Shown: one piece after another, positions 4,692 through 33,509 of the stretch
How the letters are laid out: the number at the start of each line of letters is the position of its first letter
Numbering within the stretch: the stretch's first letter is position 1
From: Botryllus schlosseri
Lineage: Eukaryota
Length of the DNA: 64,000 nt
NCBI GenBank assembly: GCA_051294905.1
Contig: CM119372.1
Span: 20,896,001 to 20,960,000, forward strand
Direction: 5' to 3'
Program-made: the position numbers and the translations under genes
Notes under the pieces: model-generated
What the model was told of the DNA's origin: nothing
The model's input: the letters and a program-made list of their open reading frames with translations, nothing else
Database searches by the model: none

Positions 4692-4784
4692 CTTATTGTT
4701 CGGCGCTTTCCGTTTCTAGACCTCTACCTCCACACCCCTGCATATTCGTGTCAATACAACCGGTTCAGCACGGATTCTACTTGA

Positions 4785-10324: not shown

Positions 10325-13300
10325 TCAGATCGCATCGACCAATCTCGTTTTTTGCAAGTACGCTTTCATAGACGACGCGTAGGTCCTTCCGTTTATGATA
10401 CGAGGCGGACAGTAGCCATGACTGTTCCCGACATCGTATCCCAGCAAGTGCTTCCTTAGTTTCTCATCAGAATAGGAGTCGAGTCCGTTTTCCAAGATGT
10501 CGGAAACCACTGAATCAGCATTTTCATCTGCGCTTTCTTTCTCGATCGCCGGCTCGCTTTTGATGATCCGGTTTATCAAATGTTCCGGCAGCATGCTCAT
10601 GATAATACCCGTGCGTTGCAGTACGCTGCCGGGCATGAACTTGCCGAGAACGCGACTCTTTTCTTTGGGAACGTCTGTCTTTTTCGGAGATGCGTCCAGT
10701 TCGTTCCAGTCTACTTCAGGGACGCGACTTTCCGATTTTGTAGCCTCCTTGCTTTTATTTGATCCGTCGGGTGCGCTCTTGGAAGACGCCGTTTTTCTCG
10801 AAGATTTAGACTTTCTTTCGTAATCTTTTGATGAGTGCGGCGTTTCTTTTGGCATGCGATGACTCGAGGGAGACCTGTTCTCTCTCGTGTCTGACCGCTT
10901 TTTCTTACCTCTGTCTCGCGACACAGACAAATGCCTAGAGCCACCGCTTTCGTCACGATGTATGTTCGCGACACGCGGCCGATCGCCAGTCCTGCCCCTC
11001 TCGTTGTCCACATTTTTAACCAGTTTCATACTCGCAATCTCCCTGGAGTGAGACTGCGTTCTCTCGGTTTTCACCAACCTCATCGAATCTGGGGCCGGTT
11101 TCCTATCGCGTGGCGAATTACGATCGCTTCTCGGCGATCTTAGACCTACGGGTTCGCGGTTTTTATTTTTAATCCCAGTGGGCGGGTGAGGATGTGCAGA
11201 CCGAGAGTCGTGACTGCCCGATCGCGACAGTCTGTTATCGTATTCGTCGCGTACAGGCATATGTTTCCGGTCGCGTCTGTCTACGTGTAAGACAGTATCT
11301 CTCGGGTGATTTCGTTCGAATTTCCTGTCATTATCGACGAATCGGCCGGGGTCTAGATACGGTTGATTGTCTCGAGGGTGAGGCAGCCGCGGCGGACTGC
11401 GTCCTCGGCCAAAATTCGGGGACAACAAAGGCGGCGGCCTCCTATCGTTTGGTCTCATAACGTGCCTTTCCGGGGCAACACCGACCGAGTGGATACGATC
11501 GTCGCGATACTGATCCGGTTCTGGACGGTTCCTTTGCTGGTATTTATTTGCGGGGCCCCTCGGGTTATCCCCTCGCATATCCTGTTCGTGCGGCATCGAC
11601 ATCAATCTTGGTATGATGCCTTCTTTCCGTTCGCCAGAGTTGCGTTTCATATTTTCGCCGTGCCAGTCCATGACTTTGCGACTACTGCTGATACCGCTTC
11701 TCTCCGACGAGAAATGACGCACCTGCGGTTTCGGGCGAATCACCTCTCTCCTTTCCGGAGAATATCTCTCCTCTCTGGGACGTTCCATTTCGTCGTAACC
11801 CACCTTTCTCCGGTCCAGGTCGAAATCTTTGTGGGGTCCTCTGTACTTTTCGTAAGTCTCACGACGGTCATGTTTACCACCGGGCATACTCCGTTCTACT
11901 TTCGGATCGCGTCTGACGCTAACCCGGTCAGGAGTTTTACGTTGGAACGGCTCGATTTTGTCACGGCGAGAATGGTACTTGTCCTCACGATGTAATTTTT
12001 GCGACGGCCGCACCTGGGTCGGTTTCTTGTCTTGATCGCGGTATTCCTGTTCCTGGACGATCTCCGGAGATTCGTAAAAGTTACCTTCGTCTCTTTTTCG
12101 TTTTCTCTTTTTTCTCTCCTTTTTCGCATCGTCGCTATAATCGTCGTCTATGACTTCGTAACGTGGCTTGCTGGACGAGTCTAGTTCCTTTTTCAATTTC
12201 TTCTTGCTCTTGGCGCGTTTCTTGCTCTCTTTTTCGGTGTAGGTGTCACTGCTGTAGCGGTCGTCGTTCGCGACTTGCGACATTGCGGAAAATTCGACTT
12301 GCGAATGCCGGCTGCCCGGGGAGAAATCGGAATATGGCGGCGCCGGGGATTCGTCTCTGTGCACTCTCTTTGGCGGGTCCGCATCCTTGTGCTGCCGTTT
12401 TTTGCTCGAATGCGATTGCGACCTGTGCGATTCTTTAGTATCATCGTCTTCTTCCGGGATTTTTTTGCTTTTCTTGTGCCTGACGGGATTTTCTCTAGGC
12501 GAGTCGGGGTCCTGTCGCTTTCGTTTGCTTTTGCCGGACCTCGCTTCTTTTTCTTGCTTAGGATGAAATTGATCGTCCGAAGACGGGTCGTAAACGACGG
12601 GCGATATCTTGCGGTGGCCTTTTTCATGTTCTTTCGACTGGCCGTGGCTGGTCTTTGGCTTTGCGGATTTTCGTTCCACGCTGACGTCATCGGGATGATC
12701 TTTCTCCGTCTTGCGTTTCGCGGACTTTTTCGATTTAGAGGAGTGCCTGGACTCGACTTCGGAATCGTTATCTTGAGAGTCCAGCGACTCCTTGATTTTC
12801 TTTGACGGATCTTTAGATTTTTTCTTTTCTCTGCTTCTGCCGCGTTCCTTGTGCTTCCTGTAAGCCGAACGATCCGGGGAGAGACTTTGCTCGGGCTGAT
12901 CTGCTTTTTCGACGGACGAGCGCTTGGCGCTGTGTTTTTTTGATTTTTTCTTGGGCGACATGGAGTCAACGGTAGCCCGGTCCGGAGTGTCTTTAGAACG
13001 TTCGCGCAATGGAGAGACTCTCTTTTGGATGATCAGATTCTCCATTTTTCTCTCGCCCCTGTCCGATTTACGTTTTGAGCTGCTGTATGATTCGGATTGT
13101 TCCGACACGTGTCTCTCTTCGGATCGCCTGCGCGATTTTCTGGGCTGTTTCGGTTCATATTCCTGTGTTTTTGATTTACCGGACGAAGAATGTTCCTTAG
13201 ATTTCTTTGCTGGCGCCACCTCGGCCTCTCGTCGTGACTTTGACTTTTTCATAGCCTCGTCCGCTTTGAAGTCTTGCTTGATTTGCTCTTTCTCAGGCTT

Positions 13301-13441
13301 TTCTTGCGGTTCCGGGTCTTCCTTTGGCTTTTTCCGGTGTTTGTCTTTGTTTCCGAGACGTGCAAACACACTGCCTCGTTCAAGTTTCGTTTGCTTTATG
13401 TCGACAGTTACTTTGCGTCTTTTACTACTCGAAGACGACAT
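10325..13441 (-). CDS. ZC3H13: ZC3H13/Flacc-like m6A writer-complex subunit, single coding exon, no CCCH finger
   Basis: N-terminus KRRKVTV..SVFARLG resembles ZC3H13 RRKVTV..SVFERLG. Long K/R/S/E/D low-complexity middle. C-terminal VDWNEL..LGKFMPGSVLQRTGI resembles VDWSGL..LLKFTPGAVMLRVGI. Confidence 0.85.
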   Translation of the reverse strand: MSSSSSKRRKVTVDIKQTKLERGSVFARLGNKDKHRKKPKEDPEPQEKPEKEQIKQDFKADEAMKKSKSRREAEVAPAKKSKEHSSSGKSKTQEYEPKQPRKSRRRSEERHVSEQSESYSSSKRKSDRGERKMENLIIQKRVSPLRERSKDTPDRATVDSMSPKKKSKKHSAKRSSVEKADQPEQSLSPDRSAYRKHKERGRSREKKKSKDPSKKIKESLDSQDNDSEVESRHSSKSKKSAKRKTEKDHPDDVSVERKSAKPKTSHGQSKEHEKGHRKISPVVYDPSSDDQFHPKQEKEARSGKSKRKRQDPDSPRENPVRHKKSKKIPEEDDDTKESHRSQSHSSKKRQHKDADPPKRVHRDESPAPPYSDFSPGSRHSQVEFSAMSQVANDDRYSSDTYTEKESKKRAKSKKKLKKELDSSSKPRYEVIDDDYSDDAKKERKKRKRKRDEGNFYESPEIVQEQEYRDQDKKPTQVRPSQKLHREDKYHSRRDKIEPFQRKTPDRVSVRRDPKVERSMPGGKHDRRETYEKYRGPHKDFDLDRRKVGYDEMERPREERYSPERREVIRPKPQVRHFSSERSGISSSRKVMDWHGENMKRNSGERKEGIIPRLMSMPHEQDMRGDNPRGPANKYQQRNRPEPDQYRDDRIHSVGVAPERHVMRPNDRRPPPLLSPNFGRGRSPPRLPHPRDNQPYLDPGRFVDNDRKFERNHPRDTVLHVDRRDRKHMPVRDEYDNRLSRSGSHDSRSAHPHPPTGIKNKNREPVGLRSPRSDRNSPRDRKPAPDSMRLVKTERTQSHSREIASMKLVKNVDNERGRTGDRPRVANIHRDESGGSRHLSVSRDRGKKKRSDTRENRSPSSHRMPKETPHSSKDYERKSKSSRKTASSKSAPDGSNKSKEATKSESRVPEVDWNELDASPKKTDVPKEKSRVLGKFMPGSVLQRTGIIMSMLPEHLINRIIKSEPAIEKESADENADSVVSDILENGLDSYSDEKLRKHLLGYDVGNSHGYCPPRIINGRTYASSMKAYLQKTRLVDAI

Positions 13442-14095
13442 ATCCTAACTGACATGTACCTTAACAGTTGATCTTCATTAGTTTGTGAATTCAATTTTCA
13501 TGAACCATCTTTTCATAACAAAAAGGTTTCGACATTGTGTCGTCATCGTCATGTGAAAAAAAGGAGTCAGAATCAGGCCAATATAATGGAAGGCCTTACT
13601 TCAACTAATAATATATTACCAGAAGTGGTGATCTTCACGACTCCTGGCAACTTCCATTACCAAGCGCACAGTGGCACTGATTACTTGTGATACACATCGA
13701 TTCTAATTTTATTTCTATACAACACTCGACGAGACCTGATTTGTAGTGGGCTCCAGGGTTGCCAGACATCTTTCGAGAAAAAGGGCCAAACAGCGCCGGA
13801 AAAGGGGCCAAATTGTTCAATAACGTTAATAACGTTGAAAAATTACCCACAGTGCTTTTGTCAATCACCTGGATTTCCAGTCTTATATTAGGACACCAAA
13901 TCAAGTTAATCAACGACCTATAACTACACTGGATCCAACCACAATAACTGCTATTATTTCAAGCCGTTTCCAACTGAATATAAAATCGTAAAAGAAAACA
14001 TTTTGTGCAATAATATGAGAGCAAATGCCACCCGGGCACCCACAGAGCATTAGACATGACAATTTCTATGGTACACCTTAATGATATCATCAAAC

Positions 14096-14711
14096 CATAG
14101 TGTCCTATATTGGGTCGACACAAGCAAATCTCACGGTTCAATGAAATTGTATCACGTCACAGTTTCCATTTGGCTACAGGCAATTTAACGGTGATTTTTA
14201 ACCGGCTTGCCGAGCATTAAATTTGATGAATCGGCTATCAATCGAAAGCTGACGCTGTACTGTTTGCGAAAATATAAATTTTATTCCACTCATGGCCCTG
14301 GAACCCCCACAATCAGCCCCAAATTATTCATTGTCGAGTAGATTGGCAGTGTGACGCAACAATGCTGTCTGGCGAAACGAGAGTGTAGCTCAAGAAAAAG
14401 GCAGCCAGACAGCATTGTTGCGTCTGTCGTTTCGCCAGACAGCATTGTTGCGTCCCAATGCCAATCTCCATAACAATGGAAAATTAGAGGTTGATTGTGA
14501 GGGTTCCAGGGCCGCGAGCGGAATAAAATTTATATTTTCGTAATCAGTGCAGAGTCAGCTTTCGATTGATACCCGTTTCACCAAATTTAATGCTCGGCGA
14601 GCCGGTCAAAAATTACCGTCAAATTGCCTGTAGCCAAATGGAAACTGTGACGTGATACAATTTCATTGAACCGTGAGATTTCCTTGTGTCGACACCATAT
14701 AGGACACTATG
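14096..14711. mobile_element. Palindromic P/Galileo-like MITE, copy 1
   Basis: Ends CATAGTGTCCTATAT..ATATAGGACACTATG, ~280-bp inverted arms, 7-bp TSD atcaaac (14089-14095 / 14712-14718). Confidence 0.9.
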
Positions 14712-14931
14712 ATCAAACACTGTGCCAAGTCTCAAGTTGGGCATTCGATCATTAGTGTAGCGAAGTTGATTATGATTAGCACAGACGCGCGCTGATCTGG
14801 CATCTAGCATACGGTATTGAAGCGCGAAACAGATTATACGCAAAAGTCGGTATTGTACCGGGTTAATTTTAAAGGTGTTCCATCAGGAGATAGGTGACGA
14901 AATTTTGTATGGTACACCTTAATGATATCAT

Positions 14932-15507
14932 CATAGTGTCCTATATGGTGTCGACACAAGCAAATCGCACGGTTCAATGAAATTGTATCACGTCACAGTT
15001 TCCATTTGGCTACAGGCAATTTGACGGTGATTTTTGACCGACTTGCCGAGCATCAAATTTGATAAAACGGGTATCAATCGAAAGCTGCCGCCGTACTGAT
15101 TACGAAAATATAAATTTTATTCCGCTCGCGGCCCTGGAACCCCCACAATCAGCCTCTAATTTTTGATTGTTATGGAGATTGGCATTGGGACGCAACAATG
15201 CTGTCTGGCGAAACGAGCGACGCAACAATACTGTCTGGCTCCCTTTTTCTCGAGGACCTGTCTCGTTTCGCTAGACAGCATTGAGGCTGATTGTGGGGGT
15301 TCCAGGGCCGCGAGCGGAATAAAATTTATATTTTCGTAATCAGTACGGCGGCAGCTTTCGATTGATACCCGTTTTATCAAATTTGATGCTCGGCAAGTTG
15401 GTCAAAAATCACCGTCAAATTGTCTGTAGCCAAATGGAAACTGTGACGTGATACAATTTCATTGAACCGTGCGATTTGCTTGTGTCGACACCATATAGGA
15501 CACTATG
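14932..15507. mobile_element. Palindromic P/Galileo-like MITE, copy 2
   Basis: Same termini; 7-bp TSD atatcat (14925-14931 / 15508-15514). Confidence 0.9.
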
Positions 15508-16491
15508 ATATCATCAAACACTGTGCCAAGTTTCAAGGTGGGCACTCGATGCTTTATCTAGAAATTCGTTTAGCGATAAGGAGTATGATTAGCACAGACG
15601 CGCGCTGATCTGGCATCTACCACACGGTATTGAAGCGCGTGAGTGTGCGCGCGTGCAATATTTATTTATTTTCCGAGGCTGGATTTCCGAGGCTGCGATC
15701 CCCTTTGGTATCCAGGGCAACATTAATCACGAACCCGGATCCCATGTCTAGTACTCTAGTGTCTAGTCAAGTCATTAGTCAATCAAGCACACAAACTTTA
15801 CAGCGCAAACACAGACAAAATAAGACTGCTGTCCATCATTCTGGGCCGAATACTTGTATGAAATTTCCTAAGCGGAAAAAAGATATGACATACCATTACT
15901 ATTTTAAACAAATTTACTCCTGGAGGATGAGTTAATACCTTTTTCTGGGTTCAATAGTGGTATAAATTACTTACCAATATGAAATAGCTTATTTCCAGCC
16001 GAAATTTGTGTGATGTGATCGCATTCGCAACGATACACCATTGCTTCGATCAATTTCACCCTGTCAATATATCTTATCGGTAGGGTAACTTATACGTTGT
16101 TCCGGAAGATGAGTTCATCATTGGTTATACCTTTTCTGAATCTCATAGTCGTCTACTTTACACCCAAACTGGAGAGAACTTATTTTGAGGTACACATGTA
16201 ACCCTAAAATCCAACTGAATAGGTCGGATCTGATCGCTACAAAGGGCAATTCACAATCGCTTCACGCAATTTGACCAAGTCAATATAATCTATCGGTAGG
16301 GTAACTTATACTTTGTGCCGGAAGATGAGTTATACCTTTTATGAATCAAATAGTCATCTATTTCACTCCCAAATTGGAGACATCTTATTTCAAGGTACAC
16401 AACCATCCGCAAAATTCACCCAAATGTGTGTGATAAGACGACCTACTGCGACAATGCACGATATCGCTTCATTCGATTTGACCATGTCCAT

Positions 16492-18500
16492 TAGGGTTGT
16501 TCAGATTTGGGCATTTTTTTGAAATCTTGTTTTGCGTAATTGCAAATGATAGTTTAGTGCATAAAAACACTTCTAAAAGCGATTTTGGTCATTTCCATGG
16601 CGATCTTCCTTGCGCGCAAAGCCCCCAAAGACCCACGGGCCAATTCTCCTTACTGCAGACTATTCACAATTCCTGGTTTGTAGCTTTAGTGAAGTTTAGA
16701 AAACGGCTGAGTAGAGCTGGGAAATATCAGGTCGAATTATCCTTTTGACGATTGAACATACTTACATTCCTATACATTCCAAATGTGGTTCACCTTCCCG
16801 TATTTGGCATAGGTAGCCGTCTGGTAGGCCTATGTATGAACGAATACAGGCATTTTCAGCTTGTTTCAACTCAGTAAATGTTAATCAAAGACATATTGTA
16901 TATGAATGTAATTTCATCTTTATAGTAGCTCCAATTCGCCTAATCCGCATCAGGTTTGCAGTATTTAATGCGTCAGAAGGAAAGTTGACCCCCCCACCTC
17001 CGAACACAAAAACGGCCTATAGTACCGAATACGGCCAAAATACCTAGGTACATTGTGCAAATGTCAAAAGCTCGCGATACTAGGCTTCTTCTCAAAAGAT
17101 CATAGTAGTTGAGTCTAAATGGGGGTCCTGATCCTCAACTATCAATGCATTCTGTCAGAAAACGTCCTCGGCGTTCTTACGGAAACAGAAACAATAATCT
17201 CAATACATAGTTGCAAGCACATACCATAGTAGGTGACGACAATGACTAATATGCCATTTTGTAAGTAGTGTCAAAGTCGTTAATGACGCTGCTGAACGAG
17301 GAGTTCAACTCAACTCAACACCGACTTTTGCTTCGATCATCACAGATGATGAGCGCCATAAGAAAAGTCTGCTGCAAGTTGTTGAGCTACACCATCAGAA
17401 GTATGACAACTTCAATAAACCCACAATGAAATCCTATAAGCCTGCCTGAGACTAGCGCCTGTTGTTATCCACTTTTTGTTTTACGCTTACCCAATTCTCG
17501 ATGTGCTTCAATGATAATAACTGTCTTTTCATCCTTCACAATTGTCTCAAGTCACGTAAATGGTCGGCCTACTATGTCCGGATTTGTGTTTTGCCTTATT
17601 CTGCTTTTCAAGTCTGATAAGGCAAATTTCCTTACAATAAATTCATCAAGTTTCAGAAACATTGTCTGTGCCAGATATTTGTTTTTTTTTGTGTGAATTC
17701 AGTTGTAAACACATACCATAGTGGGTGACGACACTGACCAATATGTATTGAGATTATTGTTTCTGTTTCCGTAAGAACACCGTGGACGTTTTCTTAGAGA
17801 ATGCATTGGTAGTTGAGGATCAGGAACCCCATTTAGACTTAACTGCCATGATCTTTTGAGAAGAAGCCTAGTGTCGTGAGCTTTTGACATTTGCACAATT
17901 TACCTAGGTATTCTGGCCGTATTCGCTACTGTGACAACGCATTGGACAGTACAGGCCTGAGTTTTTGTGTTCGGAGGTGGGGGGGGGGGGGGTCAACATT
18001 CCTTCAGACGCATTAAATACTGAAAACCTGATGCGGATTAAGTGAATTGGAGCTACTATAAAGATGAAATTACATTCATACTCAACATGTCTTTGATTAA
18101 CATTTACTGAGTTAAAACAAGCTGAAAATGCCTGTATTCGTTCATACATAGGCCTACCACGCGGCTTCCTATGTCAAATACGGGAATGTGAACCACATTT
18201 GGAATGTATAGGAATGTAAGTATGTTCAATCGTCATAAAGATAATTCAACCTGATATTTCCCAGGTCTACTCACTGCTCAGCCGTTTTCTACCGCAAACT
18301 TCACTAAAGCTACAAACCAGGAATGGTGAATAGTCTGCAGTAAGGAGAATTGGCCCGTGGGTCTTTGGGGGCTTTGCGCGCAAGGAAGATCGCGATGAAA
18401 ATGACCAAAATCGCTTTTAGGAGTGTTTTTATGCACTAAACTATCATTTGCAATTACGCAAAACAAGATTTAAAAAAATGCCCAAATCTGAACAACCCTA
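16492..18500. mobile_element. Non-autonomous hAT element with ~720-bp inverted arms
   Basis: TAGGGTTGTTCAGATTTGGGC..GCCCAAATCTGAACAACCCTA; 8-bp TSD atgtccat (16484-16491 / 18501-18508). Confidence 0.9.
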
Positions 18501-18734
18501 ATGTCCATATATCTTATTGGTAGGGTAACTTATACTTTGTTCCGGAAGATGAGTTATACTTTTTATGAATGTAATAGTAATCTATTTTACACCCAAACTG
18601 GAGACTGGAGACAATTTTACACAAGTAACCCTAACATCCACCTAATTCGGTCGGATCCTATCGCATTGTGCGACAATGCACAATAGCTTCGCACGATTTG
18701 ACCATATCAACATATCTCCTCGGTAGGGTGACTT

Positions 18735-20250
18735 CATCATCATCATTGGTTTATTAGCAATTCCATCAGTTCAATACACCACAAAAAATGCGATACAATG
18801 AATGGACAGGAAGATGTCGAAGCGACTTGGATTTGTCAATGGAATCGGACACCCACCTTGGCCTAGGCGTAGTAAAGAGGAGGCATGCACACTGAATGAA
18901 AGTAAAGAATACAGTATAGAAAAAGAAAGCGACAAGAAATAGGGCGGCATGTCATGGGAAGCGAGATCGATAGGTCAGTCGTGGTCCGGTAATCTTGAGG
19001 ATGGACTGTATTTATTTAGTAGTAATTGCTTGTATTTCGACTTGAATGTGGACATGCTCGTCGACTGTCGGGTGGCAGGCGGGATACTGTTCCACACATC
19101 AGGTCCGGCATATTTGATGGAGCGATGATCTTTTCGGTCGATCATATGATATTTGGACGACGTGGACGCGCGTGTGTTGTACTTGTGCGCTTTTGATTCA
19201 GAGGTAAAGAAGTCATTGAAATATTCGGGGCAACGACCGCAGTGAAACTGATACATAAACTTGGCGATTTCTAGTTTCCGCATATCTTCTATGTTTAGGA
19301 CGCCGAATCTCTTCAGCAGCGACTTATTGGATGGGCAGCCAGGCCCCTTTGGGGCCCTAGCTATGATTCGGAGCACTTTATGTTGTAGTTTCTGCAGTGG
19401 CTTGAGTGCAGTTTTACTGGCAGCCCCCCAACAGAGGATGCCATAATGTAACTTCGATTGGATTAAGGATTTAAAGAGTATCAGGAGAACCCATGCTGGC
19501 ATGAAGCGCCCAAGGCTGTAGAACAGGCCGCACTTCGGTGATAATTTAGTTTCTAGGGACTGAATATGACTCTTCCAGGACATGTTCGAGTCCAGTAAAA
19601 CTCCGAGATATTTGGCATTATCTGTGTTGGAAACGGGCTGACCAGCGATATTAACGGTTAGGTTATTTTTCGAATTAACTGTCAGCAATTGCGATTTCGA
19701 GGCGTTTATGCAAAGGTTGTTCTGGGCCGTCCACTCATGGACTTTGGGCATTTGGTCACCAGTCAGGGCATCCAGCTCTGCCGTCGAAGATGCGGAAGAG
19801 AGGAGGTGAGTATCATCGGCGAACAGTGTGGTGTTCAATGAGGAGGTTTCAAAATGTCGTTGACATATAAGGTGAAAAGGACCGGTCCAAGTACTGAGCC
19901 CTGGGGCACACCACAGGTCACCGGGTGAGGAGAGGACAAGGTGTCTGAGATCGCAACCATTTGTTGGCGTCCAGTGAGGTAACTTTTCATGAGCTCAAGT
20001 TGTGGGCCCCGAAGTCCGTAACGCGCCAATTTCGAGATGAGAATTTTATGATCTACGCAGTCAAACGCTTTTTTTAGGTCGAGAAAAATGCTACATCCCA
20101 CATTTCGCTTCTCTGAGATATCATAGTACTGTTCGGCCACTGTTAGGAGGGCATGAGCGGTTTGGTGTTTGTTTCGGAAGCCAAATTGTTGAGGGGAAAT
20201 GACAGACATTTTGGCGAGGAATGAGGACAGGCGGGAGATGAGATATAGGC
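18735..20250 (-). mobile_element. 5'-truncated CR1/L2-group LINE (RT fragment, frameshift near 19835)
   Basis: QFGFR, FLDLKKAFDCVDH, GVPQGSVLGP, LFADDT, KYLGV, YGILCWG motifs; 3' tail aataaaccaa(tga)n at ~18735. Confidence 0.92.
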
Positions 20251-20779
20251 CTACATTTCCTGAATCCAATAGTCATATATTTTACACCCAGACTAGAGGC
20301 AGCTTATTTCGAGGTACACAAATTACTCTAAAATCCACCCAAATATGTCGGATCTGATCGCTACAAAGGTTAATTCACAATCGCTTCACGCAATTTGACC
20401 ATGTCAATATATCCTATCGGTAGGGTAACTTATACTTTGTTCCGGAAGATGAGTTATACCTTCAATGAATCTAATAGTCATCTATTTCACACCCAAATTG
20501 GAGGCATCTTATTTCAAGGTACACAACCATCCGTAAAATTCAACCAAATGTGTGTGATAAGATGGCCTACTGCGACAATGCACGATCGCTTCACAAGATT
20601 TTACTATGTGAATATATCTTGTCGGTTGGGTAACTTAAACTTTGTTCCGGAAGATGAGTTATCTATTTTCTGATTGTAATCGTCATATACTTTGAATACA
20701 ATCAATGAGTGATGACCGATGTTCAGATATATAAACAATAATTTTTATTATCAACGAAAATGAAAGAACGGGCGATTAA

Positions 20780-21500
20780 TTTTTTTAACAATAAAGCGGC
20801 GTAGAACAATATTTGCCCATTTTCTCTGATGAAATCGAAGGCTTCTTTGACGTCCACGAAATGTACCTGATAGTCGTTGAAACATATAGCCCCCCAAGGC
20901 AATTGAACGAGTACGACATCCAGTGACCACCAGCATCATTGCAACCTTTGTGAGTTATTGCGGATTTCAAAGTATATGTACGGGTACTACCATCTTGAAG
21001 CAATACTTTGATCTTTTCGTCAATTTGAATTGACGTAGCGGCTGTTAAGGTGCCAGTTGATTGTCTTGCCAACGAAATGATTAGAACATTATAGAGATCG
21101 ACGTCAAACTATTTCTGACCAAGTTATTGGCGGAGCTGCAAACGCTGCAATGTCTGAAATCGATTTCGTTTTTGAAATGGTCCAAACAAGTTTGTATGCT
21201 TGTGCAAGAACTGGGTACTGGGACCATCAGATCTATTCTTCGATTAGTCTGCTTATAAATTGAATTACCACAGTTGCAGCATTGATATTAACGATCGACG
21301 CTCACGAATGGTACGCAATTGAAACATTCCAAGGCAGTTGATACGAAAGGAGATGATAGAAACTCTTCTGAATCCAACTGATCGCCATACACGAAATCGC
21401 AGAAATCGCATGCTTCTTTAACCGATAAGTCATAAAAATCATCAGCAATCTCCTGTCTGTGTCTGCAAGTGTCCCGCGGCATAGCTTTCACCTTTCAAAT
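20780..21500 (-). pseudogene. Decayed ubiquitin-specific protease (USP/peptidase C19) catalytic-domain fragment, copy 1
   Basis: In USP order across one stop and two frameshifts: FVYGDQLDSEEFL, CCNC and CSVC zinc-ribbon pairs, VLIISLAR, YTLKSAITHKG..GGHW, CFNDYQV..GQILFY. Confidence 0.75.
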
Positions 21501-22880
21501 CACATTTCGAACTGATGAACTTCCCGCATGATAACAAATTATAATGCGATTTTCCCTCTCTGCACAATTGGTAAAATTATCATTGGAATAACGAAGATGT
21601 CTAAACAACCTCTTTGGTGGCAATATTAGCTTACATGTCTGCACTTATGCGAACAACTCAGGGCACATGAGATTGCCACAGCGTCTCACCGATTGTGAAT
21701 TGTCGCCGGGAGCGACCAGATCCATCATATTTAGGTGAATTTAAGGGATACTTGTGTACCTCGAAATAAGTTGTCTGCAGTCTAGGTGTAATATATATGA
21801 CTATTAGATTCAGAAAATGTATAACTCATCTTCCGGAACAAAGTATAAGTCACCTTACCGATGAAATATATTGACCTGGTTAAATCATGTGGAGCGATTG
21901 CGCATTGCCGCAAATGCGATCATATCAAACACATTTAGGTGAATGTTGCAGAGGGTTGTGTACCTCGAAATAAGTTGTCTCCAGTCTAAGTTCAACATAG
22001 ATGACTATTAGATTCAGAAAATGTTTAACTTATCTTTCGGAACAAAGTTTACCTTACCCTGCCGATAAGATATGTTGATATGGTCAAATTGCATGAAGCG
22101 ATTGTGAATTGCCTTCTGTAGCAAGAAGATCCGCCATATTTAGGTGGATTTTAAGTAACTTGTGTACCTCGAAATATGCTGTCTTCTGTTTGGGTGTTAA
22201 ATAGATGACCATTAGCCCCAGGATATGTATATCTCATCTTCCGGATCAAAGTATAAGCTACCCTATCGACAAGATATATTGACATGGTGAAATTGCGTGA
22301 AACGATTGTGAATTGCCCTTTGTAGCGATCATAGATCCGACGTAATCAGTTGGATTTTAGGGTTACTTGTGTACCTCAAAATAAGTTCCCTCCAGTTTGG
22401 GTGTAAAGTAGACGACTACGAGATTCAGAAAAGGTATAACTCATCCTCCAGGAGTAAATTGGTTTAAAATAGTAATGGTAGGTCATATCTTATTTCCGCT
22501 TAGGAAATTTCATACAAGTATTCGGCCCAGATGACAGCAGTAAATAAACTGCATTTGATTACACTGGTCAACACATATTTTTAGACAGACAAAGTAAGAG
22601 TGGTTTTGGTTGTTCTGAAGGGCACTGATTCCGAATATGACCTTGTTTTTTTTTTTCTTTTTCAAATTGGCTCTTGTTTTGAAGATAACCCATGGGCCTA
22701 TTTTGACCAAAATCTCGCATTCCATTTTCGCTGTAATGGCTGGATAGAAAATCGGCTCGGTCGCACTATAAAGTTTAGAAATTCAATCTACATGTTATTT
22801 TGACGCACAAAAGACTCTTTTTAAATCAAAATACAGCAACGCCACTATATTTAGGTGTATTAGATTAATCATAGTTATAC

Positions 22881-23487
22881 CATAGTGTCCTATATGGTGT
22901 CGACACAAGCAAATCACACGGTTCAATGAAATTGTAACACGTCACAGTTTCCATTTGGCTAGAGGCAATTTGACGGTGATTTTTGACCGGCTTGCCGAGC
23001 ATTAAATTTGATGAATCGGGTATCAATCGAAAGCTGACGCTGTACTGCTTGCGAAAATATAAATTTTATTCCACTCATGGCCCTGGAACCCCTACAATCA
23101 GCCCCAAATTATTCATTGTCGAGTAGATTGGCAGTGTGACGCAACAATGCTGTCTGGCGAAACGAGAGACTAGATCAAGAGCAAGGATGCGGCCGAGCGG
23201 CGAGAGTGGGATCAGCTGACGTCGCGGCAATAGCAATGTGCAACCGCGCCACAGAGAAACGCTGCGCTGTTGATACTTTTTCTATGCGCTTCGGTACAAG
23301 CGAGCACACACCAGCCTTTCCTTGACTTGTAAGGGTAAACTGGGTCCACAGAATGTATTAGGGCCCTACCAATTTTCGCGCAATATCCTTCAGCTGATAG
23401 AGATATGTAGGCTACGTCTAAGTAGTCTACATTGGATATGTCAGATTATTATGATATCGATTGCCTCAGCCCGCTTGTTGCGTAGGG
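22881..23487. mobile_element. Left arm of the long P/Galileo-like element, cut by the duplication junction
   Basis: CATAGTGTCCTATATGG terminus; near-identical to 29826-30432. Confidence 0.85.
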
Positions 23488-23980
23488 CACCAGTCAGGGC
23501 ATCCAGCTCTGCCGTCGAAGATGCGGAAGAGAGGAGGTGAGTATCATCGGCGAACAGTGTGGTGTTCAATGAGGAGGTTTCAAAATGTCGTTGACATATA
23601 AGGTGAAAAGGACCGGTCCAAGTACTGAGCCCTGGGGCACACCACAGGTCACCGGGTGAGGAGAGGACAAGGTGTCTGAGATCGCAACCATTTGTTGGCG
23701 TCCAGTGAGGTAACTTTTCATGAGCTCAAGTTGTGGGCCCCGAAGTCCGTAACGCGCCAATTTCGAGATGAGAATTTTATGATCTACGCAGTCAAACGCT
23801 TTTTTTAGGTCGAGAAAAATGCTACATCCCACATTTCGCTTCTCTGAGATATCATAGTACTGTTCGGCCACTGTTAGGAGGGCATGAGCGGTTTGGTGTT
23901 TGTTTCGGAAGCCAAATTGTTGAGGGGAAATGACAGACATTTTGGCGAGGAATGAGGACAGGCGGGAGATGAGATATAGG
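23488..23980 (-). mobile_element. Duplicated CR1/L2 RT fragment
   Basis: Matches 19757-20250 (GVPQGSVLGP, DLKKAFD). Confidence 0.9.
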
Positions 23981-24510
23981 CCTACATTTCCTGAATCCAA
24001 TAGTCATATATTTTACACCCAGACTAGAGGCAGCTTATTTCGAGGTACACAAATTACTCTAAAATCCACCCAAATATGTCGGATCTGATCGCTACAAAGG
24101 TTAATTCACAATCGCTTCACGCAATTTGACCATGTCAATATATCCTATCGGTAGGGTAACTTATACTTTGTTCCGGAAGATGAGTTATACCTTCAATGAA
24201 TCTAATAGTCATCTATTTCACACCCAAATTGGAGGCATCTTATTTCAAGGTACACTACCATCCGCAAAATTCAACCAAATGTGTGTGATAAGATGGCCTA
24301 CTGCGACAATGCACGATCGCTTCACAAGATTTTACTATGTGAATATATCTTGTCGGTTGGGTAACTTAAACTTTGTTCCGGAAGATGAGTTATCTATTTT
24401 CTGATTGTAATCGTCATATACTTTGAATACAATCAATGAGTGATGACCGATGTTCAGATATATAAACAATAATTTTTATTATCAACGAAAATGAAAGAAC
24501 GGGCGATTAA

Positions 24511-25231
24511 TTTTTTTAACAATAAAGCGGCGTAGAACAATATTTGCCCATTTTCTCTGATGAAATCGAAGGCTTCTTTGACGTCCACGAAATGTACCTG
24601 ATAGTCGTTGAAACATATAGCCCCCCAAGGCAATTGAACGAGTACGACATCCAGTGACCACCAGCATCATTGCAACCTTTGTGAGTTATTGCGGATTTCA
24701 AAGTATATGTACGGGTACTACCATCTTGAAGCAATACTTTGATCTTTTCGTCAATTTGAATTGACGTAGCGGCTGTTAAGGTGCCAGTTGATTGTCTTGC
24801 CAACGAAATGATTAGAACATTATAGAGATCGACGTCAAACTATTTCTGACCAAGTTATTGGCGGAGCTGCAAACGCTGCAATGTCTGAAATCGATTTCGT
24901 TTTTGAAATGGTCCAAACAAGTTTGTATGCTTGTGCAAGAACTGGGTACTGGGACCATCAGATCTATTCTTCGATTAGTCTGCTTATAAATTGAATTACC
25001 ACAGTTGCAGCATTGATATTAACGATCGACGCTCACGAATGGTACGCAATTGAAACATTCCAAGGCAGTTGATACGAAAGGAGATGATAGAAACTCTTCT
25101 GAATCCAACTGATCGCCATACACGAAATCGCAGAAATCGCATGCTTCTTTAACCGATAAGTCATAAAAATCATCAGCAATCTCCTGTCTGTGTCTGCAAG
25201 TGTCCCGCGGCATAGCTTTCACCTTTCAAAT
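24511..25231 (-). pseudogene. Decayed USP fragment, copy 2
   Basis: Duplicate of 20780-21500. Confidence 0.75.
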
Positions 25232-25232
25232 C

Positions 25233-28200
25233 CAGAGGTGGACAGTAACGAAGTACTTCTACTTTTTCGAAGTACTCAAGTAGTTTTCCTCTACTTCTGG
25301 TACTTACTCAAGTAGATCTGATTTTCGCTACTTCTACTTCTACTCCGTAATATTTGGTGATCTACTTACTTACTTTTCGCTATTTTCAGTTTGTCAAGTA
25401 GAAGTAGTTCAATCCTCCAATCAGAAAGATAGCCTGAGGAATTTCGGGGCTGTTTTCACGGAGTATTAACATTTAATTTTCATAAAAGTTGAGTAAAGCC
25501 CAGTATTTTCGCCACACTTCGCGCGCAGTGGATACGGAGTAACCAATATGATTTCACGAAAGTATCGTTGAATATAATTTAGGTAGCGGGTTGGCGTGGT
25601 TACATTCACACCACATTGTCGCCCTTCGCCCATATGAAATATTTCATCACAGTATATATGGCTCATCACAACGTTTGAAACTGATGTTTCGCAATCTAGC
25701 ATTTACTTATCATATCGAAATCTAGCATGTCCATTGTCCATTGTCCATGGCGTGTCCTAATCTGGAAAAGTGGACTCTGACTTTTATTTTTAAGTTTTAG
25801 AGCTATTTTAGCATACCACCTTTGAAACTTTCTGGAGTAAAGACATGAAATACATGTTCTGGTTTTAGAAGTAGTATTTATATTTCACTTTCAATTCCCA
25901 GTATCATATACTTTGATCTCTAATTAATATCATTTTTTTGTCTGGATAACATCAGAGTTGGATCAATTGTAATTTGTAATTGTAATTGAATGTAATTAAT
26001 TACATTTTTTAATGTAATTGTAATGTAATTGTAATTGAAGCATTTTTATTTTGTGTAATTGTAATTTTAATTGTAATTTGACAAAAATTTTGCTCAATTA
26101 CAATTTCAATTACATTAAATTGCTATTGAGACCTGACAAGCACAACATAAAATAATTGACTTATAATGCATTCTCTCTTCAAATGTCGACAAGGAATTTG
26201 GAGGATCCATTCACAATTTGGAGGATCCATTCGCGGAAGCCCTTAACTGCGCCCTTGCGGGCGAAGTTTTTTTTATTTTTACCGCAATGCTGGCCTCGGC
26301 TGCCATTGTATACAATTTTTAGATTACTAACCAACGGATGGATTCGCAACACGTGACTCACGATTGCATACGCCGAGAAGCGAACTGCTGATCCGGCTAA
26401 AAGCAGCAGAATTGATAGTCCCATAGCTGGCGATCCAAGCGTCGAAATTTGATATGTATGGTCCTAATCGAAAGCTAGTGTCGCACTGACTCCGCAATAA
26501 AAGTATATTTCCCGGCAATGGTACCATCCCAAAATAGTCGTGAAAGTCTGGGAATCGGCATTGTTCTGAACAATCGCTGGGCGTATTTGGTAATTGTTGT
26601 GGTCATGCTGCTGCAGCGCTCTCACTTTTCAGAACAGTCGGCCTTAAACGGATATTTTGGAGCAGTTACATTGCCCTGACGAGATTTTATTTTGTATTTT
26701 CGGAATTAGTACATCAATAGCTTACGATAAAGACCAGATGCATCAAATTTGGACGCATGGATCGCCAGCTCTAGGACTACAAAGTTTGCTGCAGTACGTT
26801 TGTCGGTGCATTCATCCGTGACTCACATCTTGCGCATCAATCCGTGGGTTGGCAATCTACAATACGATTTCAGATCACGATGCTGCATCGCTACTTCGTC
26901 TGGCTAACTAACCAGACCAGTGGATATTATATAACGTCTTATCTGACAAAGCACGGTTTTGTTTTTACTCCTCATCCTAATTCCTACGTCCCTCGATAAA
27001 AATAATATTATTTCTTTAATTATATACTATATACGCAAATCCAACACGTGCATATATTATAATACTTTTTTCAACGACATACTGCACCCTATCCTTAATC
27101 CTAACCCGTAGGAAATTAGGTAAATAACATTTCACATTTCCAATTACGTGAGCCATAATTACCGAGCATACAAAACAAGCTTATATTACGTCACAATGAC
27201 ATCTTACATAGCATACTATGTACGCACATAAACGCATTTATTACTACACAATCTGAACTAGACTTGAATTGTTGTTAAATACGACGCTACGGTTGTCAAG
27301 GAGCACGGTTGAATTTATGATTATTCAATTACATGTTCAACAGCAGCAATTGTAATTGTAATTGTAATGTAATTGAAGCATGCAAGGAGTAATTGTAATT
27401 GTAATTGTAATTTGATATTTTTAAAATGGAGTAATTGTAATTGTAATGTAATTGAAACATGCATGAAAGTAATTGTAATTGTAATTGTAATTGAACTGAA
27501 ATAATGTAATTGATCCAACTCTGGATAACATGCACGTTGAAGTATAAAAGCAAGTGTCGTAATGCCTTTATTTTCCGGAAATAAAGCTACACAGCATGGC
27601 ATTTTTACGGTCCACCATATTTTTTATCAACGTTTATTATTCGCGCAATGTATTGGTCTTCAACTAAACTACGGGCCTTATAATGTAAGGTAGGGCGCAG
27701 AACCATGATATTTTCTAAAACGTGCTGTTCGAGAAAACAGAGGATTAGTATCATATTTCCATATCAATACTATCATTTTCATCCCATGATGCGGACGAAT
27801 GCTTATTCTGTCAAAAATTGGATACCTCCTGGTATGTAAAATAATAATCGTTATATTTTTCATCTGAATAATAGTCACACACAATGCACAATGCGATATA
27901 ATGAACACATATAGGAGGATATCGAACGACACGCAGGTGCGATCTTTTCAGACTGACATCCACCTCGTCCTAGAGTGCCCGATGTCAAAGTTCTTTTCGA
28001 TGATGATCTTTTCGAAGCCGTGGCCCTTTCTAGATCTTTCCATTCCTTGTGAGTGCTTTCCATCGTCGGGTCTTTTTCTGCCCTTTTTTTTTGACGGTGG
28101 GGGAAGAGGAGCCCAGATAAACCTCCGACGAGAATCGAATTGGAGCCACCCGATTTGTAGGCGCTTATCGTCACCACTGCCCCATCAATATGAATCGTGA

Positions 28201-28441
28201 TCGCCACCTTTCGCATAGCTCAATTTGCACCTTTTGACAATCCATATGAACGAATTTGGACCGTTTTCACAACTACTACTTACTTACTTGAGTAGATTTA
28301 AAATCAGTCAATTCTACTTCTACTTCAAGTAGTTTTAGGTTGCTTCTGGAAGAAGTACTTCTACTCGTACTTGAGTAGATTTTTTCGTCGCTACTTCTAC
28401 TTCTACTTGAGTAGCTTTCTTGACTACTTTGACCACCTCTG
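25233..28441. mobile_element. Non-autonomous hAT element (agtact/ctactt subterminal repeats)
   Basis: CAGAGGTGG..CCACCTCTG; TSD ttcaaatc (25225-25232 / 28442-28449); empty site present at ~21494-21501. Confidence 0.95.
25953..27523. mobile_element. Nested non-autonomous hAT element (gtaatt subterminal repeats)
   Basis: CAGAGTTGGATCAATT..AATTGATCCAACTCTG; TSD gataacat (25945-25952 / 27524-27531). Confidence 0.95.
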
Positions 28442-29825
28442 TTCAAATCACATTTCGAACTGATGAACTTCCCGCATGATAACAAATTATAATGCGATTT
28501 TCCCTCTCTGCACAATTGGTAAAATTATCATTGGAATAACGAAGATGTCTAAACAACCTCTTTGGTGGCAATATTAGCTTACATGTCTACACTTATGCGA
28601 ACAACTCAGGGCACATGAGATTGCCACAGCGTCTCACCGATTGTGAATTGTCGCCGGGAGCGACCAGATCCATCATATTTAGGTGAATTTAAGGGATACT
28701 TGTGTACCTCGAAATAAGTTGTCTGCAGTCTAGGTGTAATATATATGACTATTAGATTCAGAAAATGTATAACTCATCTTCCGGAACAAAGTATAAGTCA
28801 CCTTACCGATGAAATATATTGACCTGGTTAAATCATGTGGAGCGATTGCGCATTGCCGCAAATGCGATCATATCAAACACATTTAGGTGAATGTTGCAGA
28901 GGGTTGTGTACCTCGAAATAAGTTGTCTCCAGTCTAAGTTCAACATAGATGACTATTAGATTCAGAAAATGTTTAACTTATCTTTCGGAACAAAGTTTAC
29001 CTTACCCTGCCGATAAGATATGTTGATATGGTCAAATTGCATGAAGCGATTGTGAATTGCCTTCTGTAGCAAGAAGATCCGCCATATTTAGGTGGATTTT
29101 AAGTAACTTGTGTACCTCGAAATATGCTGTCTTCTGTTTGGGTGTTAAATAGATGACCATTAGCCCCAGGATATGTATATCTCATCTTCCAGATCAAAGT
29201 ATAAGCTACCCTATCGACAAGATATATTGACATGGTGAAATTGCGTGAAACGATTGTGAATTGCCCTTTGTAGCGATCATAGATCCGACGTAATCAGTTG
29301 GATTTTAGGGTTACTTGTGTACCTCAAAATAAGTTCCCTCCAGTTTGGGTGTAAAGTAGACGACTACGAGATTCAGAAAAGGTATAACTCATCCTCCAGG
29401 AGTAAATTGGTTTAAAATAGTAATGGTAGGTCATATCTTATTTCCGCTTAGGAAATTTCATACAAGTATTCGGCCCAGATGACAGCAGTAAATAAACTGC
29501 ATTTGATTACACTGGTCAACACATATTTTTAGACAGACAAAGTAAGAGTGGTTTTGGTTGTTCTGAAGGGCACTGATTCCGAATATGACCTTGTTTTTTT
29601 TCTTTTTCAAATTGGCTCTTGTTTTGAAGATAACCCATGGGCCTATTTTGACCAAAATCTCGCATTCCATTTTCGCTGTAATGGCTGGATAGAAAATCGG
29701 CTCGGTCGCACTATAAAGTTTAGAAATTCAATCTACATGTTATTTTTACGCACAAAAGACTCTTTTTAAATCAAAATACAGCAACGCCACTATATTTAGG
29801 TGTATTAGATTAATCATAGTTATAC

Positions 29826-32800
29826 CATAGTGTCCTATATGGTGTCGACACAAGCAAATCACACGGTTCAATGAAATTGTAACACGTCACAGTTTCCATT
29901 TGGCTAGAGGCAATTTGACGGTGATTTTTGACCGGCTTGCCGAGCAATAAATTTGATGAATCGGGTATCAATCGAAAGCTGACGCTGTACTGCTTGCGAA
30001 AATATAAATTTTATTCCACTCATGGCCCTGGAACCCCTACAATCAGCCCCAAATTATTCATTGTCGAGTAGATTGGCAGTGTGACGCAACAATGCTGTCT
30101 GGCGAAACGAGAGACTAGATCAAGAGCAAGGATGCGGCCGAGCGGCGAGAGTGGGATCAGCTGACGTCGCGGCAATAGCAATGTGCAACCGCGCCACAGA
30201 GAAACGCTGCGCTGTTGATACTTTTTCTATGCGCTTCGGTACAAGCGAGCACACACCAGCCTTTCCTTGACTTGTAAGGGTAAACTGGGTCCACAGAATG
30301 TATTAGGGCCCTACCAATTTTCGCGCAATATCCTTCAGCTGATAGAGATATGTAGGCTACGTCTAAGTAGTCTACATTGGATATGTCAGATTATTATGAT
30401 ATCGATTGCCTCAGCCCGCTTGTTGCGTAGGGCTCCAGAGATGCGTGGCGCTGTTGATGCTTTCTATAGGCGCTTCGCTAAAAGTGAGCACACACCAGCC
30501 TTTCCTTGACTTGTAAGGGTAGAACTGGGTCCACATAATGTATTAGGGCCCTACCAATTTTCGCGCAATATCCTTCAGCTGATAGAGATATGTAGGCTAC
30601 GTCTAAGGAGTCTACATTGGATATGTCAGATTATTATGATATCGATTACCTTAGCCCGCTTGTTGCGTAGGGCTCCAGAGACACGTCGCGCTGTTGATGG
30701 CGGGTGTCGATACTTTCTATAGTCGCTTTTATGGTTAAGTGTGAGCAAGGAGCATTGAGCATGAGCATACATTACAAGCTTTTATTTGATCCGTATGGGT
30801 AGGACTTGGTCCGCGAATGCAGCAGGTAAAATGTTGATTGTTGAATAAAGTTTAACAGCAGGAGTGTCGAATTAAACTGGTATCGCTGTCCGGATTCAAT
30901 CCGTTACTAGAAAGCTTGCGGGCCATACCTGCCAAATGATTCCAAATTGTTACCACCAAATTCATACCTTTGTTTTTCACTGGAATATATCTGATATCAC
31001 TATAAACCAGTGGTTCTTAACCTTTTTTCTTCCAGCGCCCCCTTTCAAAAATTATCGTGCTCCAGCGCCCCCCTAACTTCATATTGTAAGGAATGTAACA
31101 AAGACAATGAGTAAGAGGGAGGGCCGTAACAGCACTTCGTTAACCCCCCTAAAAACGATTGCCTTGCGCACCCATAGCGTGATAAACCGAACTTCTGAGG
31201 GCTTCGCCCCCACGAACCCCATATCGTGATTTTGATGGTCAGCAAAGTTTTTGTGGCCTGGTCGCCCTAAGTACCAAAATTTTCCATAATGCATGAATGA
31301 ATAGGTGGTAATTACATATATAAGTCGCTATATAAACTTTTTATCCTCTGAGCCCACGTAATCAGATTTACCAGTAGCACTGAGTGAGCTGTTGTATAGG
31401 AAAATAAAGGGCACGTAATTAATAATTAAACATATTCGGGCGTGCCCGCAGGTACAATTATTCGTTACCAGGGCCGTAACAGCACTTCGTCAGCCCCCCC
31501 CCCAAACAAAAAACGTTGGTCCTGGGCCCCCATCGGGTGATAAACCAAACTTGCGGGGGACTTCACTCCCAGACCCCCATTAGGTATCTACATTGGGTGT
31601 CCATTTACTGAGGCAGCTATTCTCGCCTATTCGCGCGAAGTGCGAAAAATTTCACTAATTAATGATTGAATTGGTAAATATCATCGGGAATTGCATGTAA
31701 ATTGAGATCAATTTTTGTCCTCTCTCTGCTCACGTAAACACATGTACCGGTAGAGCTGAGTGAGGTGCAATGTTCCCTCTAAGCTGCGCACGTGCGCAGT
31801 GCTGACACGGTCTCTGCACACAGAAAATCTACGTTGCGCGCAACAAATCCGGAGTTATTACCTTTTTCTAGTCGTTACGCACTGTTGTCCAAGGGTCAGC
31901 GCAGTGAGTTGTTGAGTGTGCGCAGGCCGCAGACTCATCAAAACTTGAAGCGAACATTGTGAGGTTTCTTGGAAACTGTAGGGCCCGTTACTAATAATTA
32001 AACATATTCGGGCGGGCGAACCCGTTGGTATGACTTCGTTGCATGATGTTATTTCGTGACCCCCTGTCTGCAATATCAAAAAATATAGAATCGCTCAACG
32101 GGGATATCGCCCAACAGGAATATCCCTGTCGTCCAATCGTACTAAACTAAAAGACGCACACGATTTCAGATTGATATTTCTTTACTGACATATAATTTTT
32201 CCCTGCCAGATGGAATTCGTCTTCTGGGGTTCTGATTGCCAAGACAGGAACATTCGGTGTCAGTCATTTAGGCGCCCATGGACAATTAAACCTATATGTA
32301 TTTTGATGGCTATATGTAACGACGTTTTCGGTGTTAATTTGCTCTGAATACTCATTAAGGATATGTCCTATCACCACATCATCTACTGCGAAGCCATTTT
32401 TCTCCAGCGCCCCCCAAACCGCCCCCCCGAGCCCAGCGCCCCCCATATCGCCCCCTGAGCGTTTCCGCCCCCCTTCAAGATCGCCAGCGCCCCCTGGGGG
32501 GCGCTGGTGGCAAGGTTAAGAACCACTGCTATAAACGTTGACGTTGGAATTTGGTTTAGCATTTTTCAATCACCAAACAGTTTTTTTGAATGCGGGCGAC
32601 CTTTTGCGTCAAAAGTAATACAGTGGTATCACAGATATTTGAATTATATTCATTCTGTAGCCTGTATATATATTCCTAATGTAACTTACGTAAAACATAT
32701 TTGCAGTATTTTTTGCGTCTGTGAATAACTGAATGTCCATCGTCCATTCGGCCCAACTGAGTTCGCACTTTTTCGCCTTCTCGGAATTTGGCAAGGTCAC

Positions 32801-33460
32801 CGACGTGGTGCTTATGGGGACTAGAGTGAAAACTCAACACTGTAGTTGTATTACTACAATATGATATTTTTACATCATCTAAATTTGCTGTCTTGAGTGA
32901 ATCTTATTACTTGAAAGTATATTTTTCTTACTAGAAATATCTCTAACAGCTGAAGGACTGCGCGAAAATTGGTAGGGACCAAATACATTCTGTGGATCCA
33001 GTTCTACCCTTACAAGTCAAGGAAAGGCTGGTGTGTGCTCGCTTTTAGCGAAGCGCATAGAAAAAGTATCAACAGCGCAGCGTTTCTCTGTGGCGCGGTT
33101 GCGCATTGCTATTGCCGCGGCGTCAGCTGATCCCACTCTCGCCGCTCGGCCGCATCGTTGCTCTTGAGCTAGTCTCTCGTTTCGCCAGACATCATTGTTG
33201 CGTCACACTGCCAATCTACTCGACAATGAATAATTTGGGGCAGATTGTGGGGTTCCAGGGCCATGAGTGGAATAAAATTTATATTTTCGCAAGCAGTACA
33301 GCGTCAGCTTTCGATTGATACCCGATTCATCAAATTTAATGCTCGGCATGTCGGTCAAAAATCACCGTCAAATTGCCTGCAGCCAAATGGAAACTGTGAC
33401 GTGATACAATTTCATTGAACCGTGCGATTTGCTTGTGTCGATACCATATAGGACACTATG
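29826..33460. mobile_element. Long P/Galileo-like foldback element (~520-bp inverted arms), flanks not matching
   Basis: CATAGTGTCC at 29826 and GGACACTATG ending 33460. Arms ~29826-30345 and ~32940-33460 are inverted. Internal ~240-bp direct duplication at ~30247-30697. Confidence 0.8.
31008..32528. mobile_element. Non-autonomous hAT (Charlie-like) element
   Basis: CAGTGGTTCTTAACCTT..AAGGTTAAGAACCACTG; TSD ctataaac (31000-31007 / 32529-32536). Confidence 0.93.
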
Positions 33461-33509
33461 ATTCGACACAGCGCTGATAAATTTCCTACGCTCTGCTGCA
33501 TTTAGCATT

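Follow-up and report, generated by a model that had tools for sequence, protein, structure and literature searches.

What is a deubiquitinase gene doing between the arms of a foldback transposon, and does it belong to the transposon or to its host? The question is raised by a locus in a 64,000-nucleotide stretch of Botryllus schlosseri DNA (assembly GCA_051294905.1, contig CM119372.1, positions 20,896,001 to 20,960,000; hereafter the window, in whose coordinates all positions are given). There, a foldback DNA transposon at 15825-22541 combines ~120-bp inverted ends, arrays of repeated units, a core of ~1 kb and two nested insertions. An earlier reading of the letters alone (the original prediction) had proposed that the core carries part of a gene for a ubiquitin-specific protease (USP, family C19). 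As set out below, we consider it likely that the element is a dead, non-autonomous foldback holding a USP remnant without its catalytic Cys, left by internal deletion of a Rehavkus-like (Mutator-related) element of ~10 kb.

The core covers ~990 bp (20700-21690), and the remnant, which comprises the C-terminal ~245 codons of a USP/C19 gene, about two-thirds of it, lies at 20723-21458 on the minus strand. The motifs occur in the order originally listed, spread over three frames: CxxC-FxYG-QxD-EEF, two zinc-finger CxxC pairs, the His box, the Asp, ILFY, a further 25 codons and a stop at 20725. The features of USP/C19 (QxD motif, finger CxxC pairs, His box and Asp) are thus present. No introns interrupt the retained part, in agreement with the original prediction, and three lesions do: an in-frame stop at 21290 and frameshifts near 21090 and 20890. 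When the translation was searched with Pfam UCH, as had been proposed, a match was obtained, but only for the single-frame His-box piece and below the cut-off (E 0.011, 15.8 bits against 23.9), each frame being scored against Pfam on its own. With X placed at the breaks, the core scored 89 bits (E 9e-30) against a profile of the six relatives described below, and aligned over 220 residues along 309-533 of the closest of them, P0001, with no long gaps and a score of 180, compared with a maximum of 75 in 1000 shuffles. On the strength of this alignment and profile score, the assignment of the core as a piece of a USP gene is secure. The core also has a signature in common with the relatives P0001-P0006, CxxC-F-x-[FY]-G-x-Q-x-D-x-EEF. 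The catalytic Cys box, already reported missing, appears in none of the three frames of the 5' part of the core. Lacking both the catalytic Cys and a transposase, and with three lesions, this copy makes no enzyme. One raw RNA run gave 25 reads of 12.9 million, with a core depth of at most 2, too few to judge expression, and a word-based search for the main USP piece among longer proteins found none.

To place the remnant among known proteins we used phmmer with the longest core frame against 1.84 billion representative sequences. There was a single hit, P0001 (E 9e-4), with no host USP above threshold. In P0001 an Ulp1-like stretch is followed by a complete UCH domain (E 5e-25), and a search with this protein retrieved P0002-P0006 (E <= 1e-77) together with one ankyrin-USP at threshold. 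Four of the five clusters so retrieved include longer members with a transposase-like region; the longer relatives are P0010/P0013 (2089 aa), P0033 (2330 aa), P0045 (2357 aa) and P0023 (1353 aa). One cluster has 42 members, of which the 15 listed sit on at least 11 contigs, some whole and some broken, the pattern that a transposon would leave. A word-based search for P0001 among longer proteins found none, an ESM (protein language model) search with P0001 stayed under 0.9 and gives a lead only, and P0041 had 0 matches among PDB sequences.

The relatives, of up to 2,089-2,357 aa, are single open reading frames (ORFs) in which the domain order reads PHD, a likely MULE-like (Mutator-like element) transposase, Ulp1 fold and USP. 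The PHD finger (PF00628) is found in 6 of the 14 members of the alignment, with a best E of 1e-5, below cut-off where shown. The transposase region contains the motifs DATGS, DGS, CLSH and a late Glu; among its ESM neighbours the MULE clusters score 0.90-0.91 and one cluster without a name 0.96, and the better of its two plasmid matches is an IS256 transposase (E 2) with both Asp aligned. From these traits the region is likely, but not firmly, MULE-like. The Ulp1 fold matches yeast Ulp1 at E 9e-7, the USP part matches Pfam UCH over the whole profile, and both the Ulp1 His-Asp-Gln-Cys and the USP Cys, His and Asp are invariant in all six relatives. The original prediction noted that transposon-borne proteases of this kind are usually Ulp1 or OTU; the relatives do carry Ulp1, but the USP comes in addition to it and not as its replacement.

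Contigs from three runs (X1, X6 and X12) were compared with the element over 20236-22640, contig depth not being a copy number. Other copies leave this sequence at 21458 and re-enter it at 21491, on the two sides of a 32-base deletion junction (21459-21490). Record 20 of X6 departs at 21458 with 177 unaligned bases, record 21 aligns over 21491-21848, which takes it into the right arm, and leaves 516 bases unaligned, and records 11 and 12 of X12 break at 21458 and 21491 too, with 144 and 209 unaligned bases. At the break other copies have 516 or more bases that this one lacks, and the element at 15825-22541 is therefore a deletion derivative. This bears out the proposal that a larger form encodes a C19 USP, the nearest proteins being transposase-linked USPs. 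Counting back from the QxD motif, the break is reached after 26 residues and, in all six relatives, the catalytic Cys after 68-72; judged by this spacing, the Cys box is beyond the break. Further deletion forms appear in the contigs, with joints 20412-21482 and 21588-21677.

The same contigs show that arm and core belong together. Record 10 of X12 extends from within the left arm across the USP (20644-21186); it has 22 substitutions, by which we recognise it as another copy, so that arm and USP are linked there too and the USP core is not the single-copy sequence, unlinked to the arms, that might have undone the original prediction. Two bases at 21090 are missing from all contigs covering them in the three runs. 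At 21290, X6 and X12 have a base other than that of the stop, and so does X1 at 365 of 389 depth; as the contigs of other copies do not have them, these two lesions are largely private to this copy. Run X12 is labelled as a different organism and has core contigs ~95% alike at low depth (20644-21848), which may come from a related species, a mixed sample or transfer.

Between the junction and the right arm lies the 5' internal piece (21491-21690, minus strand). A PHD-like trace resembling the relatives' finger, at ~21600-21660 beside the arm, is a hint only: at 7 bits it is the top of 2550 window chunks, with a window-wide E of ~0.9, and was picked post hoc. We also considered 21491-21690 as a decayed Cys-box half, a variant in other copies giving a Cys 71 codons before QxD, and rejected it, as no frame matches the Cys-box profile and the contigs break between the two parts.

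An explanation of another kind is a Pack-type capture, in which a foldback with no gene of its own took the USP piece from another transposon or from a host gene and carried it along as it multiplied. The Drosophila foldback FB4 offers known cases of such capture (PMC8277862, accessible parts), and the window element resembles FB4/Ssk-FB4 in being a non-autonomous foldback with repetitive arms and a gene piece, with one copy tandemly duplicated. Moreover, depth is far greater on arm-derived contigs than on those of the core, a sign, as far as contig depth can give one, that most family members are without the core, and no transposase was seen in the family of the window element. However, the cargo of FB4 is a captured host gene and its target-site duplications (TSDs) are 9-10 bp (PMC8277862), whereas the cargo here looks like the element's own gene: the piece is intronless and has its own stop ~25 bases from the left arm, it resembles transposase-linked USPs and matched no host USP, at the break other copies continue further upstream, and the weak PHD-like trace lies beside the other arm. 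We therefore regard capture as unlikely, and prefer the internal deletion of an element encoding its own USP.

The termini are inverted as described, with ACTGCTG at 15825 and, on the other side, its reverse complement closing at 22541. The alignment of the first ~120 bp has 3 mismatches and 7 gap columns, the latter including 5 extra bases near the left tip. The left terminal inverted repeat (15825-15945, plus strand) has ~90 unique bases and then merges into the first unit. Units L1-L3 follow at 15920-16491 (182, 216 and part of 207 bp), the end of L3 and unit L4a at 18501-18734, and the inner units L4b, L5 and partial L6 at 20231-20700, all on the plus strand; the right arm, on the minus strand at 21690-22541, has 3.7 ~205-bp units, inverted, and ends in the right terminal repeat. 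Unit anchors are at 15920, 16102, 16318, 18542, (20231), 20442 and 20647 on the plus strand and at 21836, 22040, 22244 and 22451 on the minus strand. The ~205-bp units are thus tandem, and inverted on the right relative to the left, as predicted, but they number ~6.3 and ~3.7 and not ~7 and 4. Pairwise they are 62-89% identical and fall into two subtypes (L2 and R1, 89%; L3 and L5, 89%). An exact 22-base terminal pattern had 0 matches in metagenome contigs.

The flanks, AAATAAG and AAATAAA, agree at 6 of 7 positions and remain a near-TSD only. Such agreement, with a chance of ~0.0025 per offset and 5 offsets tried, is unlikely by chance. With the ends taken one base further out agreement is 5 of 5, but over 9 bp at the original ends it is 4 of 9. 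These lengths would suit a parent that was a foldback of another superfamily or of a new group, with a 7-bp (or 5-bp) TSD, and that acquired the same USP clade separately; the distance of the window USP from its relatives, whose tail it does not have, would suit it as well. Against this, a TSD length cannot be fixed from one old copy with a 5-base difference at its left tip, and every transposase-linked relative found is MULE-like, so we hold this origin to be very unlikely. That the arms are ordinary satellite arrays flanking a USP pseudogene by chance, as units only 62-89% alike and an imperfect TSD might suggest, is improbable in the extreme and largely refuted, since each array, in inverted orientation to the other, ends in a matching terminus that is not part of the repeats, and the arm-core junctions recur in other copies.

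For the Mutator-related parent that we favour, the closest description is that of Rehavkus, a Repbase group in or sister to MULE/Mutator (Rehavkus-1_TC, -3_TC and -1_HR). The element at 15825-22541 has terminal inverted repeats together with subterminal tandem repeats, as Rehavkus elements do. In the accessible passages of the literature, Rehavkus elements have 9-bp TSDs, terminal inverted repeats of 26-400 bp and one ORF with a PHD finger and a MULE-like transposase, measure 4.9-18.5 kb and are recorded in Repbase only (PMC6446971), and the inverted ends of Rehavkus-1_TC are arrays of a 164-bp unit, mostly in 5 and 8 copies (PMC10218199). The window element likewise has unequal tandem arrays inside inverted ends; a single ORF, a PHD finger (below cut-off where shown) and a likely MULE-like transposase are seen in the proteins of the relatives and not in the window copy. 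It differs in its best flank match, 6 of 7 as against a 9-bp TSD, the comparison with Rehavkus being by description only, and in that the parts of PMC6446971 and PMC10218199 available do not give Ulp1 or USP for Rehavkus. Because the 9-bp TSD test failed, in one decayed copy, we call the element Rehavkus-like and not a member. Two further sources, as far as accessible, name Rehavkus only as outgroup or MULE member (PMC13359780; bioRxiv 10.1101/2021.09.26.461848).

The proteases can be compared more widely. Mutator and Ginger1 transposases carry Ulp1, OTU or PHD domains (Bao et al. 2010, PMC2836005, accessible parts), and the relatives are like them in having a ubiquitin-like protease fused behind a DDE transposase; unlike them, with one protease each, Ulp1 or OTU, in the parts of that paper available, the relatives have Ulp1 and USP in tandem. 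A USP on a DNA transposon is already in print: a C19 domain is fused to the Trichomonas transposase XP_001314237 (pfam01609, transposase_11; PMC2836005), and UCH occurs in subgroups c and d of HLE2 Helitrons, which use a rolling-circle RepHel (PMC11417382). These cases share with ours a USP-type deubiquitinase carried by a DNA transposon, but they involve other transposase classes, and the accessible passages mention no foldback arms. Our literature search found no paper on Ulp1 and USP joined to a MULE-type transposase, Repbase Reports lying outside that search.

Several observations weigh against the Rehavkus-like origin. The window copy has no transposase; none lies between these arms in what was read of the family, of which no full copy was read. 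In the relatives, Pfam MULE has no match in the transposase region, the fold model of this region has a pLDDT (predicted local distance difference test) below 50, with only the Ulp1 part confident, and by profile IS256 is only a weak match (E 0.01, probability 3-4%). The window USP is 23-31% identical to the relatives over its longest piece, it stands on a very long branch with no supported placement in a tree of 8 USP rows, and it ends 25 residues after ILFY, as against 114-292 in the relatives; P0007 was the sole non-transposon USP in the local control. DNA loci of the relatives were sought in viral, metagenome and prokaryote contigs and none was found. The frameshift near 20890 was not seen to be private to this copy in the three runs, and the 9-bp agreement of the flanks, poor at the original ends, rises to no more than 6 of 9 with the ends shifted inward by 1 base. 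From these comparisons the window element probably represents a different family from the relatives.

If the parent was of this type, its one long protein would likely hold a PHD finger and a DDE transposase together with a USP and, probably, an Ulp1-type protease, so that full copies of the family would encode a PHD-transposase-(Ulp1)-USP protein. The parent transposase would bind the terminal repeats and the arm units, and may have moved this copy in trans before it decayed; the arm units would multiply its binding sites, an idea cited for foldbacks (bioRxiv 10.1101/2024.12.02.626372, accessible parts). Internal deletion by incomplete gap repair could have given this and the other short forms, and the nested insertions would have arrived later.

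What the proteases would do is a separate matter. The PHD finger could tether the proteases and the transposase at chromatin, where SUMO and then ubiquitin would be stripped in turn, and this stripping may shield the transposase-DNA complex and the locus from SUMO-led ubiquitin tagging, removal and silencing. Of the roles considered for the parent's proteases, this local removal of SUMO and ubiquitin to counter silencing is the one that we tentatively favour; we found no paper linking the SUMO-led ubiquitin tagging pathway to transposases. Alternatively, the proteases might process a polyprotein, or might steer DNA repair after excision, as suggested in the available parts of PMC2836005. It is still more doubtful that the element stands for a separate foldback lineage, possibly with a 7-bp TSD, in an undescribed clade whose transposase chain would carry a PHD reader, a SUMO protease and a deubiquitinase and, as a counter-defence, erase a SUMO-then-ubiquitin signal of the host locally.

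Two insertions interrupt the left arm. The first, at 16492-18500, is a non-autonomous element of 2,009 bp; its inverted arms are ~720 bp long and 89.5% alike, and its 8-bp TSD, ATGTCCAT, is perfect. The nested insertion originally named hAT is real; it has no Pfam match, and we take it to be hAT-like going by its 8-bp TSD and its TAG..CTA ends. Its core (17210-17740, plus strand) translates to VNDAAERGV, presumably a transposase C-terminal motif, which likewise has no Pfam match. The second, at 18735-20240 on the minus strand, is the expected long interspersed nuclear element (LINE), truncated at its 5' end, with a reverse transcriptase (RVT_1, E 6e-21), a short CAT-repeat tail and a 5' boundary at ~20231-20250; its flanks have no word of 7 bp or more in common that could be a TSD.

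The original prediction missed a near-identical tandem duplicate of 19754-23484, at 23485-30429 on the plus strand, which contains part of the LINE, the inner left arm, the core, the right arm and flank. The two differ by 7 mismatches and 3 gap columns in 3739, and by an insert of 3.2 kb (25233-28441, with the 8-bp TSD TTCAAATC) found only in the second copy, beside the deletion junction. The junction of the duplicate (23484/23485) falls within a 240-bp tandem unit and shows 1 base of microhomology, and the pair may be a real tandem duplication or two haplotypes placed in series.

Other features lie around the element. A very abundant repeat starts at ~22558, ~17-20 bases to its right, and many contigs are loose-ended at 22557-22561. 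A family of palindromic elements with a common end of ~230-300 bp flanks the foldback on both sides (14063-15639, 22879-23406, 29824-30351 and 32937-33466). An ORF of 1039 codons at 10325-13444 (minus strand), with the foldback ~2.4 kb upstream of it, is charged and of low complexity and has no Pfam match; its first and last motifs resemble ZC3H13. Exons of the host gene FCF1 lie at 39964-40700 on the minus strand (PF04900, E 1e-36 for 39967-40419), and a 546-aa ORF1-like protein at 3075-4715 (minus strand), with a zinc knuckle (E 0.0095), is probably from a LINE.

As to why proteases for SUMO or ubiquitin occur on many DNA transposons, there are only suggestions in the accessible parts of PMC2836005, from 2010, and our search found no paper on a transposon-encoded deubiquitinase acting on silencing. 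Here the window copy matters only as a sign that there is one more divergent family, whose shorter protein terminates with the USP, and as an instance of foldback arms that evolve as small satellites. The useful objects are the intact relatives P0010, P0033 and P0045. With an intronless protein combining transposase, PHD, Ulp1 and USP, both triads conserved across families ~35-45% identical, transposition could be assayed in single knockouts of either protease.

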